The notes: generated from the letters alone by a model not told the origin. A DNA stretch of 64,000 bases from an uncultured Clostridium sp. (GCA_948467875.1 CAOKFZ010000001.1:61889-125888); one strand, 5' to 3'. Shown: positions 61,221 through 64,000, numbered from the stretch's first letter. Translations and numbers: made by a program.

Positions 61221-62036
61221 TTATTTCATTTTCTTATCAAGCAATTTCATTTTAATATAGAATATTACAACTAAAACAAGTAATACACCAATCACAATCA
61301 AAATAACATTTCTAGCTATTCCAGTCTTTGGCAAAATTCCCTTTTTAACTGAGTCCTTTTGTGTATTATTTGCTGTATTTGCTACTATATTTTGATTTGA
61401 ACCTGAACCTGAATTGTTAGTTCCTGTCCCTGAGCTACCATTTCCATTATTGTTTGTTGAATTTTGATTTGTATTATTATTACCACCATTATTATTTGTA
61501 GAATTCGTTGGTGTTGTATTGGTCGTATTGGTGTTAGTCGTATTCGTTGTATTTTCTGGCTTTGGAGCTGGGCTTGCTGTCTTTATATCAATTGTTTTTG
61601 TCAGATTAGCCACTTTAATCTCTTCCATCCCATTGGAAACAGCAATATCTTTTAAGGTAATCGTTGTGTTTGCCTTGCTATTTTCCTTCACTTTAAAAGT
61701 AATTTTAAACACTGTTTCATCACTAGAAGTTAAACTTCCTCTATCTGTAACCAATTTACCATTTGCTTCATTATAAGAAGGATTTGCCCAACTATTTTGT
61801 CCTGACATTCCCACTAATGACAAACTCTCTTTATCATAGTCAAGTGTTGCTCCTAGTGCAATAATTCCCTTCTGAGCTTGAATATTAGAAATATTCACGT
61901 CTACAACAAATTCCTCTGCTTTGTCAAATTCATTTTTTGCAGTTTGCAAACTCATATCACATGAAGCTGCATACACACAAGACGCCACACATAGTATGCT
62001 AAATAAAATGAATGCTATTTTTACTATTTTCTTCAT
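61221..62036 (-). CDS. Sortase-anchored (LPKTG) surface protein with a cohesin-like domain and a Thr/Asn-rich stalk
   Basis: A signal peptide, a cohesin-like domain (GATLDYDKESLSL...FKITFKVKE...IAVSNG), then LPKTG, a TM helix and a KKMK tail. Confidence 0.7.
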   Translation of the reverse strand: MKKIVKIAFILFSILCVASCVYAASCDMSLQTAKNEFDKAEEFVVDVNISNIQAQKGIIALGATLDYDKESLSLVGMSGQNSWANPSYNEANGKLVTDRGSLTSSDETVFKITFKVKENSKANTTITLKDIAVSNGMEEIKVANLTKTIDIKTASPAPKPENTTNTTNTNTTNTTPTNSTNNNGGNNNTNQNSTNNNGNGSSGTGTNNSGSGSNQNIVANTANNTQKDSVKKGILPKTGIARNVILIVIGVLLVLVVIFYIKMKLLDKKMK

Positions 62037-62052
62037 AGTTTCTCCTTTGATT

Positions 62053-64000
62053 TTATTTTATTTCCATCAAACCAATTAATGCTAATTTAAGTTGTGCTAA
62101 ATCCGTGATGGTAATTTCGCCATTTCCATCTACATCAGCAGATTTCAAAGCAATTCCTGTCAACAATTCTTGCTCAATATAATGTAACTTTAATTTAGCA
62201 AGGTCTGTAATTCCTAATTCACCATTTCCATCAATATCTCCTGTTACAACTAAAGTGAATAGTAATTTATCGCCTACTTTCAAAGTCATTCCTGTTGCAA
62301 TCACAGCATCATTTCCAAGAACATTTCCAGCTTTATCCATAAGAACTAAATCTTGTTGTGTTACCACATTTGTTTTAAATTTACTAAAAGTTGTACCTGG
62401 GGCAATTCTTGAAATTACATTTTCTTCAATTGTATATACATCTGAAGTAATTCCTTCTAATTTCTTGGTAACATTGATTTCTAAACTTGCATTTTCAGAA
62501 ACCACTTCTATATCTCCATTACTTGCTACAATATCACGAACACTAATCATTGTTTTTGTGTCTTGGTCAATCGTTTCTTTTACTTTGAATTTGATTTTGA
62601 AAACATCACTATTGTCTGTTACATAATGATTATTGTCTGTTACAAATTTTAAATTCTCTTCATTTATTGCAACATCCCAACCATTTTGATTTTCAACACT
62701 GATTTTTTCCAAAACATTTTTATCATAGTCTAATTTACCACCCAATGTAATCAAACCTTTATCAATTGCAGTTAAATCACTAATTTTAACAATTACTTCC
62801 ATTTCATCGCCTGGATACACAGGTTGATCTGCCACTTTTTCAATAGATGTAACAAAACTTGGTGTTGTTGGTGGAATTTCACTTGCAACTGTTACTGCAC
62901 AAGGTTTACTTGTTGCATTTTCACTTGTTGTTCCAACAGTTGTTGTCACTTCTAAAACATAATTTCCACTATCTGTTTCTTGAGCGTTTTCTATTTCTAA
63001 TACTTTATCTGTTTTTCCTGTTAATTTAACGTCATTTTTATACCATTGATAAGTTTGAATTCCTTCATTTTCTGTTACTTCTGGACGAATCGTTAATTTC
63101 TCCCCTACTTTTACTGAAGTAGCATCTTGTATTGTAATTTCTGCTGGAACTGCGGCTGGAACAGCCACTGTCTCTCCTCTAGCAGTTTCTTCTTGTACAA
63201 TTGCTTTTGCAACAAAAGTAGCTTCAACAATACAGTTCTCAGAATTTGCATCATCATAATTTACTGTAATATCCATTGCATCTTTATTGTTTACATCAAT
63301 TTGTTTTCCACAAACTGTAATTGTTTCAATTTCATAACCTGCATCTGGTCTTACATTAAGAGTTCTAGATGCACCTTCTGTAAGAGTAACAATATTTCCT
63401 TCTTCACGATTTGCTCCTTCAATATTACCACCTTCTGTAGCTGATACTACAATTGCCTTATTTTGTGGTACAGTTCCATCATTTTCAACAACTGCAATCG
63501 CAAATGGACTGAATGAATCACAAGTTATAATTAATCCATATGGTGTTACAACACAAGGAATTTCTTCAACACCTGTTACATTGCCAGCATTATCTCTTTT
63601 AAAGTGATATGCTTTAAAAGTAACACCTACATCTTCTGGACCATATCCTTCTGGAAATCCTAAAGATATTCTTAGTCTATGACCAGTTTTTACAACATAT
63701 TTTTTACATACATTTAATGAAATATTATAGGTTTCACTTGTTACTAATTCTTGACTGCCTAATTCGTTTTCCATTAAATCATTCATTGTTTCTCTTTCAG
63801 TTTTTGTAGTTCTTGTTGTTACTAAAGCAATTCTACTTTTTAATTTATCAGAAACGTCTTCTCCATCACTTGTTTGCCAACCATTCATTGAAAGGTCTTC
63901 ATTTTCAAGAAGAGTTGGTCTACCAAATACTTCCCAATTTTTTGCTTTATTCATACTAAATGAACATGCTATTGTATTAATTGCTCCATAGCTTATTTCC
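62053..64000 (-). CDS. Dockerin-bearing multidomain surface protein with a cohesin-like domain and an Ig-like domain; the 5' end lies beyond the right edge
   Basis: The C-terminal type-I dockerin duplicate reads GDIDGNGELGITDLAKLKL / ADVDGNGEITITDLAQLKL. The cohesin-like segment GGKLDYDKNVLEKI...FKIKFKVKE...IVASNG is homologous to the neighbouring LPXTG protein. The frame stays open upstream of the first Met to position 64000. Confidence 0.75.
   Translation of the reverse strand, partial: EISYGAINTIACSFSMNKAKNWEVFGRPTLLENEDLSMNGWQTSDGEDVSDKLKSRIALVTTRTTKTERETMNDLMENELGSQELVTSETYNISLNVCKKYVVKTGHRLRISLGFPEGYGPEDVGVTFKAYHFKRDNAGNVTGVEEIPCVVTPYGLIITCDSFSPFAIAVVENDGTVPQNKAIVVSATEGGNIEGANREEGNIVTLTEGASRTLNVRPDAGYEIETITVCGKQIDVNNKDAMDITVNYDDANSENCIVEATFVAKAIVQEETARGETVAVPAAVPAEITIQDATSVKVGEKLTIRPEVTENEGIQTYQWYKNDVKLTGKTDKVLEIENAQETDSGNYVLEVTTTVGTTSENATSKPCAVTVASEIPPTTPSFVTSIEKVADQPVYPGDEMEVIVKISDLTAIDKGLITLGGKLDYDKNVLEKISVENQNGWDVAINEENLKFVTDNNHYVTDNSDVFKIKFKVKETIDQDTKTMISVRDIVASNGDIEVVSENASLEINVTKKLEGITSDVYTIEENVISRIAPGTTFSKFKTNVVTQQDLVLMDKAGNVLGNDAVIATGMTLKVGDKLLFTLVVTGDIDGNGELGITDLAKLKLHYIEQELLTGIALKSADVDGNGEITITDLAQLKLALIGLMEIK

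Follow-up and report, generated by a model that had tools for sequence, protein, structure and literature searches.

Genes A and B lie at one end of a 64,000-nt stretch of DNA from an uncultured Clostridium sp. (GCA_948467875.1 CAOKFZ010000001.1:61889-125888; the whole stretch is called the window in what follows, with positions counted from its first letter), and encode a cohesin protein and a dockerin protein. Several systems of related design have been described in gut bacteria. The Amy4 protein (Sca1) of Ruminococcus bromii, about 1350 amino acids (aa) long, has an N-terminal catalytic domain, a cohesin and a C-terminal dockerin (Ze et al. 2015, PMC4611034). Experiments showed that this dockerin binds the cohesin of Sca2, a protein with a sortase signal predicted at its C-terminus, and also the cohesin of Amy4 itself (PMC4611034). 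Limousia pullorum cSca5 has an N-terminal cohesin and an LPxTG motif and is highly expressed; AlphaFold3 predicts that it binds most dockerins, and it is the computationally predicted anchoring hub of the Limousia ‘mucinolysome’, predicted to bind dockerins of scaffoldins and of enzymes (PMC12997984). A protein type of R. flavefaciens FD-1, ‘SIGN-Transglutaminase-like-Doc’, is represented by ten modules, of which five are clustered head to tail (Rincon et al. 2010, PMC2930009).

Clostridium perfringens, likewise a gut Clostridium, secretes glycosidases (NanJ, NagJ, NagH) that bear single, non-cellulosomal cohesin (X82) and dockerin modules. We know of no dedicated sortase-anchored cohesin protein that is encoded beside the cargo in that system.

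We consider it probable that A and B form a one-operon, non-cellulosomal cohesin-dockerin display at the cell surface, in which B is tethered to A. A first-pass annotation of the window had proposed that a wall-anchored cohesin docks its dockerin-bearing neighbour; this we retain as the best explanation, given the operon, the linkage of the genes in 61/70 loci of relatives and the exchange of B's tail for wall anchors, with the amendment that B is no bare adaptor. The topology proposed for B and A is that of Amy4 and Sca2, the likeness being one of layout and module families. The two systems differ in that the cargo here has a transglutaminase fold whereas that of Amy4 is a GH13 amylase, that A and B are adjacent in one operon, that an X-like module stands between the cohesin and the dockerin of B, and that binding of B to A is only predicted. 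A has the layout of cSca5 and of R. flavefaciens ScaE (signal peptide, one cohesin, linker, LPXTG), which are attachment points for dockerin or X-dockerin proteins, but neither the window nor the related loci showed a multi-cohesin scaffoldin. The FD-1 proteins resemble B by domain layout, in that a secreted transglutaminase-like domain is followed by a C-terminal dockerin; they belong, however, to a fibre-degrading cellulosome, and an internal cohesin is unreported there. The likeness to C. perfringens extends to relatives of the A/B locus that have dockerins on NPCBM/CBM32 proteins, but sequence identity is just 15-17%, and here the cargo is something other than a glycoside hydrolase (GH).

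Domain layout of the two proteins

Both genes are on the minus strand in the open reading frame (ORF) listing of the window, B running 64000->62053 and A 62036->61221. The features quoted in the first-pass annotation are all in the sequence, but it gave no strand and did not reckon with the truncation of B by the window edge. The spacer between the stop codon of B and the start of A is 16 nt long (62037..62052, minus strand) and holds an AAGGAG ribosome-binding site 6 nt 5′ of the ATG of A, which indicates an operon junction. A terminator-like hairpin follows A (61164..61201, minus strand), whose 10-bp AT-rich stem (AACTAGAAAT/ATTTCTAGTT) pairs perfectly around a 13-nt loop and is followed by a T-run; it was read directly from the sequence, having been missed by a consensus scanner because the stem contains no G-C pairs. 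Taken with a promoter belonging to the next gene, these sequence features indicate that A and B are a single operon. That promoter is of the sigma-70 type with an extended -10 (61132-61104, minus strand; TTGACA, 17 nt, TG-n-TATAAT; 12/12 matches) and stands upstream of an ArsR-family helix-turn-helix gene (61057-60779, minus strand), which in turn overlaps a gene for a DUF1648 membrane protein (60792-60166).

Gene A (61221..62036, minus strand) encodes 271 aa, predicted to be a sortase-anchored protein with a single cohesin. Its signal peptide (aa 1-23, MKKIVKIAFILFSILCVASCVYA; 61968..62036) has a predicted signal peptidase I cut after VYA, and the ..NVYA motif at this site is kept among A-like proteins. 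The cohesin (aa 39-142 by Pfam; 61611..61922) matches PF00963 with an E-value of 1.9e-10 and 41.5 bits against a cut-off of 24.1. A low-complexity stalk of some 80 aa rich in Thr, Asn, Gly and Ser follows (aa ~153-232; 61341..61580), as read from the translation, and the C-terminus is a cell-wall sorting signal (61224..61334) in which LPKTG at aa 235-239 precedes some 20 aa of hydrophobic helix and the basic tail KMKLLDKKMK. TIGR01167 (LPXTG_anchor) matches aa 235-262 with 21.2 bits (cut-off 15.9); Pfam Gram_pos_anchor stays under its cut-off (14.7 against 20). All features expected of an LPXTG substrate, namely signal peptide, motif, hydrophobic segment and positively charged tail, are thus found in A, as the first-pass annotation had read them. 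With a cohesin as its sole functional module between a secretion signal and a sortase signal, A is, by domain layout, an anchoring scaffoldin of the ScaE / Sca2 / cSca5 kind.

This layout (cohesin, linker, [LI]Px[TA]G, transmembrane helix, basic tail) is kept in A-like proteins. Homologues number about 188, are 230-300 aa long and mostly have the Pfam cohesin; some carry the name ‘LPXTG-motif cell wall-anchored protein’ in their source. The pattern [LIVF]PxxG with a hydrophobic stretch and basic tail was found in 64/75 A-like ORFs, and the 11 without a sorting signal are mostly truncated or have the transmembrane helix only. A Cys is conserved 2-5 residues past the predicted VYA site in most A-like proteins (AASC, ALSC, KPNC; about 61955-61967 in the window). 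We considered A as a lipoprotein and rejected this as unlikely, because a lipobox-like VASC occurs in only 4/58 A-like proteins.

The window holds only part of B (62053..64000, minus strand). The reading frame stays open between the window edge at 63999 and the ATG at 63954 chosen by the ORF lister, and of the six metagenome contigs shown that encode an identical gene A protein, five hold a complete B of 1250 aa upstream of it (e.g. L001:2674-6426); what the window covers is thus just the C-terminal 648 aa, residues 603-1250. The missing 602 aa, read from contig L001, comprise a signal peptide and a transglutaminase-fold domain. On full-length B, Transglut_core (PF01841) scores 24.5 bits against a cut-off of 23, the NCBIfam model ‘MAG6410 transglutaminase-related lipoprotein’ matches the N-terminal half locally (E 4.8e-17), and Cys231-His266-Asp290 are invariant in two alignments, of 12 and 31 homologues; profile and triad together place this part of B, outside the window, in the transglutaminase-like superfamily.

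The AlphaFold2 (AF2) model of the passenger half, made on a 94%-identical orthologue, has a predicted local distance difference test (pLDDT) score of 76. Among PDB entries it matches Streptococcus pyogenes TglA best (9CRN; E 2.6e-11 by Foldseek across 331 columns, 16% identity, TM-score 0.55 on the target), which a PDB profile search with the B family also found (E 1.8e-9). Further fold matches are microbial and animal transglutaminases (FXIIIa/TG2/TG3), putative cysteine proteases and the PeiP isopeptidase. B thus matches TglA and Transglut_core by profile, fold and conserved triad, but its cargo, at about 570 aa, has extra beta-rich regions. A search of the literature library used found no paper on the function of S. 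pyogenes TglA, and so no activity is transferred to B. The passenger is predicted to act on extracellular proteins, as a peptidase, amidase or transglutaminase that depends on Cys; the proteins that accompany it in relatives would suggest host mucosal glycoproteins as its possible substrates. The first-pass annotation had left the displayed cargo blank; with a transglutaminase-fold passenger and conserved triad, B is an enzyme-like cargo itself. An adaptor scaffoldin is a non-catalytic bridge with one or more cohesins and a dockerin of different specificity, and the ~570-aa passenger sets B apart from that class.

The window part of B begins with a conserved ‘mid’ region (residues ~603-803; 63397..63999, minus strand, as are all the following modules), which has the motifs GFPxGYGPxDxGVTFKAYHF and CDSFSPFA, with invariant columns in two alignments. 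It matched no Pfam family; a hidden Markov model (HMM) built for the family matches residues 1-201 of the fragment (E 6e-117), and AF2 confidence there is moderate. The Ig-like module that follows (I-set / Ig_3; 62947..63141) passes PF13927 with 30.9 bits against 30. In a PDB profile search it matches phage Ig-like tail and decoration proteins, and it is missing from some B orthologues, e.g. P0088.

The internal cohesin of B (residues ~986-1113; 62467..62850) goes unreported when full-length B is scanned, and is found when the module is scanned alone (Pfam Cohesin, E 1.2e-7, 32.4 bits against 24.1). The cohesins of A and B are 40% identical over 115 aa (E 6e-18). They share FKITFKVKE / FKIKFKVKE, exactly as first annotated; two other motifs said to be shared are looser than had been quoted, since A reads TLDYDKESL and VSNG, and B reads KLDYDKNVL and ASNG. 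In fold comparison the B cohesin is a nine-stranded beta-sandwich (jelly-roll) that superposes on solved cohesins, and the nearest cohesin structure in the fold search is from C. perfringens mucin-active enzymes.

An X-like module of about 70 aa (62245..62457) directly precedes the dockerin and makes an X-dockerin dyad with it. It matched no Pfam family; the HMM that we built for it, xmod, co-occurs with dockerins on unrelated passengers. The C-terminal dockerin (62056..62241) consists of two 22-residue F-hand repeats 34 residues apart and matches Dockerin_1 (PF00404) with 34.6-36.3 bits against a cut-off of 22.9, which bears out the duplicated type-I-like dockerin, alongside cohesin and Ig modules, that the first-pass annotation saw in B. 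The calcium-binding loops DIDGNGELGITD and DVDGNGEITITD both have D1, D3, N5 and D12; at position 9 the first has G, the second T. We count the ligand set as present, with G/T at position 9 in place of the usual D/N; in 65 unique dockerin homologues this position is occupied by T, S or G (with A in a single second repeat), and nearly all have D/N at positions 1, 3, 5 and 12. Profile searches thus classify the shared module as a cohesin and the dockerin keeps its calcium-binding Asp/Asn at 1, 3, 5 and 12, the two points on which the earlier reading had been staked. The dockerin is internally symmetric: its repeats are near-identical, with I/V then T/N at positions 10/11 and K-L at 17/18. Such symmetry would agree with a dual mode of binding. 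For the window part of B, AF2 gives a pLDDT of ~90 across the cohesin, X and dockerin modules.

Linkage in relatives and other dockerin proteins

Members of the B family number more than 560, with 50-94% identity and shared architecture, all unnamed or hypothetical, in at least 275 GTDB species genomes. Seventy-nine loci were listed, all from uncultured gut metagenome-assembled genomes (MAGs) titled Clostridia, Clostridium sp., Lachnospiraceae etc., whose isolate names point to mouse, rabbit and other hosts. Among the dockerin-bearing B loci (70 species), an A-like gene lies directly downstream in 61 and on either side in 62; two of the eight without it end at a contig edge. The outer flanks are variable, with cotJ at about 12/79 loci and ArsR at 5/79.

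The internal cohesin is kept in 65/70 of the dockerin-bearing loci. The five variants without it still have the X-dockerin dyad and gene A, and in four of them A is followed by another X-dockerin protein; the fifth locus ends within A. More distant homologues (41-47% identity) of the transglutaminase, mid and Ig passenger have neither cohesin nor dockerin; their C-termini are instead LPETG or VPETG with a transmembrane helix (L076, L075) or, in L083, a set of three SLH domains (E 4.6e-34). The cohesin-X-dockerin tail therefore holds the place of a wall anchor and swaps with it, and by this comparison of sequences most likely serves wall attachment.

Dockerin proteins found beside the pair in relatives have NPCBM and F5/8-type-C (CBM32) domains, M26 IgA1-peptidase-like domains, or Big_2/SH3 domains. 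Large ones lie at L030:9899-15733, L062:9963-14849 and L018:116-5536; among these three are NPCBM plus CBM32 proteins and one M26 IgA1-protease-like protein whose dockerin is N-terminal. The NPCBM/CBM32 protein of L030 has a cohesin-X tail of its own. These large neighbours suggest a host-glycoprotein-directed cohesin-dockerin system in the lineage. A phmmer search with the X-dockerin dyad of B gave 667 clusters (50% identity) at E<=1e-10, with many best matches spanning both modules. Eight of the X-dockerin proteins were sampled: three have NPCBM/CBM32 domains, two have no other Pfam match, and the remaining three are a C1 peptidase of the papain family that also has a lectin-like domain, a TED/VWA adhesin-like protein and an FGE-sulfatase-like protein; plant cell-wall enzymes account for 0/8. 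The label ‘non-cellulolytic’ that was first given to the pair agrees with what these related dockerins are attached to.

The proposed tethering of B to A and its alternatives

As we picture it, A would be exported and cut after VYA, and a sortase encoded elsewhere would link its LPKTG motif to peptidoglycan, so that the flexible Thr/Asn-rich stalk would present the single cohesin at the cell surface. Secreted B would insert its calcium-loaded dockerin into that cohesin, which would hold the enzyme-like cargo non-covalently on the wall. B's own cohesin may be a second socket, for another B or for an X-dockerin protein such as the NPCBM/CBM32 proteins or the peptidases. Some results weigh against tethering. 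Neither cohesin matches any solved cohesin at the sequence level in PDB sequence and profile searches (the sole PDB sequence match of A is low-complexity, in the stalk), so that specificity cannot be read from known complexes and a fold search was needed. Five of about 68 informative loci have no adjacent A-like cohesin gene, and in a sixth, L030, it is the large cohesin-bearing NPCBM/CBM32 protein that comes after B. A TLxTC motif search found no sortase gene in the window or in 85 related loci. As to the cargo, its domain lies outside the window, having been read from contigs with identical A and modelled on the 94%-identical orthologue; Transglut_core is barely over its cut-off and the passenger model is of moderate confidence. 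Mirror-tree analysis of 51 loci gave partial correlations of 0.48 for dockerin with the cohesin of A, 0.52 for dockerin with the cohesin of B and 0.47 for dockerin with the X-like module, values that do not discriminate between the two cohesins as partner of the dockerin.

The last result bears on self-assembly, in which the dockerin would mainly bind B's own cohesin, whether in trans or in cis, with head-to-tail oligomers or an auto-inhibited clasp as the outcome, while A would anchor other dockerin proteins or only the end of a chain. B has both partners on one chain, the A and B cohesins are just 40% identical and could differ in specificity, the dockerin's residual distances correlate with the B cohesin at least as well as with that of A, and the cohesin-X tail of the L030 protein implies that the tail moves as a cassette; a precedent is the Amy4 dockerin of R. 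bromii, which recognises its own cohesin (PMC4611034). We nevertheless regard self-assembly as the main role of the dockerin as unlikely, since five B variants without the internal cohesin keep the X-dockerin dyad and gene A, and the whole tail is exchanged for wall anchors in distant homologues. The two arrangements are moreover compatible, both occurring in Amy4. That the modules do not bind each other at all, being look-alike folds in which the dockerin is a calcium-dependent stabiliser or carbohydrate binder, the cohesins are generic beta-sandwich spacers and A and B are independent surface proteins with no more than an operon in common, we hold to be improbable. To our knowledge many non-cellulosomal cohesin- and dockerin-like modules have no demonstrated partner, and the dissimilarity of these cohesins to any solved cohesin in sequence would fit such a case. 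But B is tightly linked to A despite shuffled flanks, cohesins and dockerins co-occur in the same loci, the dockerin keeps canonical calcium ligands and internal symmetry, and the tail is swapped for wall anchors among homologues.

A plant-fibre cellulosome whose GH partners are encoded elsewhere in the genome is very improbable. It could appeal to a cohesin fold near those of type I cellulosomal cohesins, to a dockerin near that of Xyn10B, and to the transglutaminase-like dockerin proteins of the R. flavefaciens cellulosome (PMC2930009). Yet an HMM scan of the six-frame translation found no cohesin or dockerin in the 64 kb besides those of A and B, and no multi-cohesin scaffoldin; neither the window nor the related loci showed the dockerin-bearing plant cell-wall hydrolases and the multi-cohesin scaffoldin bearing a carbohydrate-binding module that characterise a cellulosome. 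The neighbouring dockerin proteins of relatives are of the NPCBM/CBM32, M26 peptidase-like and Big_2/SH3 kinds, no plant cell-wall enzyme was among the eight sampled X-dockerin proteins, the nearest cohesin structure comes from mucin-active enzymes of C. perfringens, and the MAGs come from the gut of mouse, rabbit and other hosts. It is scarcely credible, too, that the transglutaminase-like protein is a spore-coat cross-linker, as might be thought from divergent cotJA/B/C genes upstream of B and from Bacillus Tgl, a spore-coat transglutaminase. B carries both a Sec signal peptide and a tail for wall display, A is a predicted sortase substrate, and the SLH and LPXTG anchors of homologues are typical of the vegetative cell surface. 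The cotJ genes adjoin the pair in about 12/79 loci and are missing from most, with side and orientation varying; a spore-coat role read from them we rejected as the main explanation. In contig L001 cotJA/cotJB/cotJC (Mn catalase) lie at L001:1278-2433, and the other loci that have them are divergent relatives.

Tethering of B to A could be part of something larger. B might form chains head-to-tail on A, non-covalent and calcium-dependent, and recruit the NPCBM/CBM32 proteins and peptidases, giving a scaffoldin-less ‘mini-mucinolysome’, a complex directed at host glycoproteins; such a complex would typify a large uncultured lineage of rodent and rabbit gut Clostridia, with at least 275 species genomes. 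We put this forward as a speculation that we ourselves doubt. A mucinolysome of the Limousia type combines multi-cohesin scaffoldins and dockerin-bearing GHs for mucin glycans in one genome; of these parts, no multi-cohesin scaffoldin was seen and no GH family was assigned in the window or related loci.

The rest of the window and the meaning of the pair

The locus has a G+C content of 0.31-0.32 against 0.336 for the window, which gives no signal of a foreign island; tRNA and Rfam scans matched no tRNA gene and no Rfam family in the 64 kb. The minus strand carries nearly all long ORFs of the window, which together with a strongly negative GC skew fits a single replichore arm. Some genes are broken or unusual. 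priA (46647-48664, minus strand) is split into at least three ORFs by two frameshifts within ~70 nt around the Walker-A motif, whose pieces appear in different frames as GITGSR and a stop, GKTEIY.. and GKTAIVLVPE; the ENA contig has the same split gene calls, and the break reflects an error of assembly or else means that this gene, essential as a rule, is a pseudogene here. Alanine racemase (38277-39393, minus strand) is covered by two overlapping ORFs in different frames (183 aa, 238 aa), a possible frameshift, and an ORF pair at 28057-29506 overlaps in much the same way. Lysyl-tRNA synthetase (57600-59723, minus strand; 707 aa) has a C-terminal extension of ~200 aa past the usual class II LysS, in which an H...HD motif of HD-like type occurs (HALTVEG...GLLHDVD); the Pfam annotation of the contig is limited to the anticodon-binding and core domains.

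The design of the A/B pair is already known from gut ruminococci and C. perfringens, and the find is real and fairly ordinary. It leaves the understanding of such systems unchanged, since the topology was demonstrated experimentally for Amy4 and Sca2 and relatives are described in C. perfringens, R. flavefaciens and Limousia. Its interest is that the pair is widespread in uncultured gut Clostridia, in at least 275 species-level genomes, where all its members are annotated as hypothetical. If the predicted binding is true, these organisms would have a compact two-gene cohesin-dockerin display outside plant-fibre degradation, a transglutaminase-fold enzyme would join the cargos displayed on the wall by cohesin and dockerin, and the cohesin of A and the X-dockerin of B would be a defined pair for studies of specificity or for surface-display engineering.

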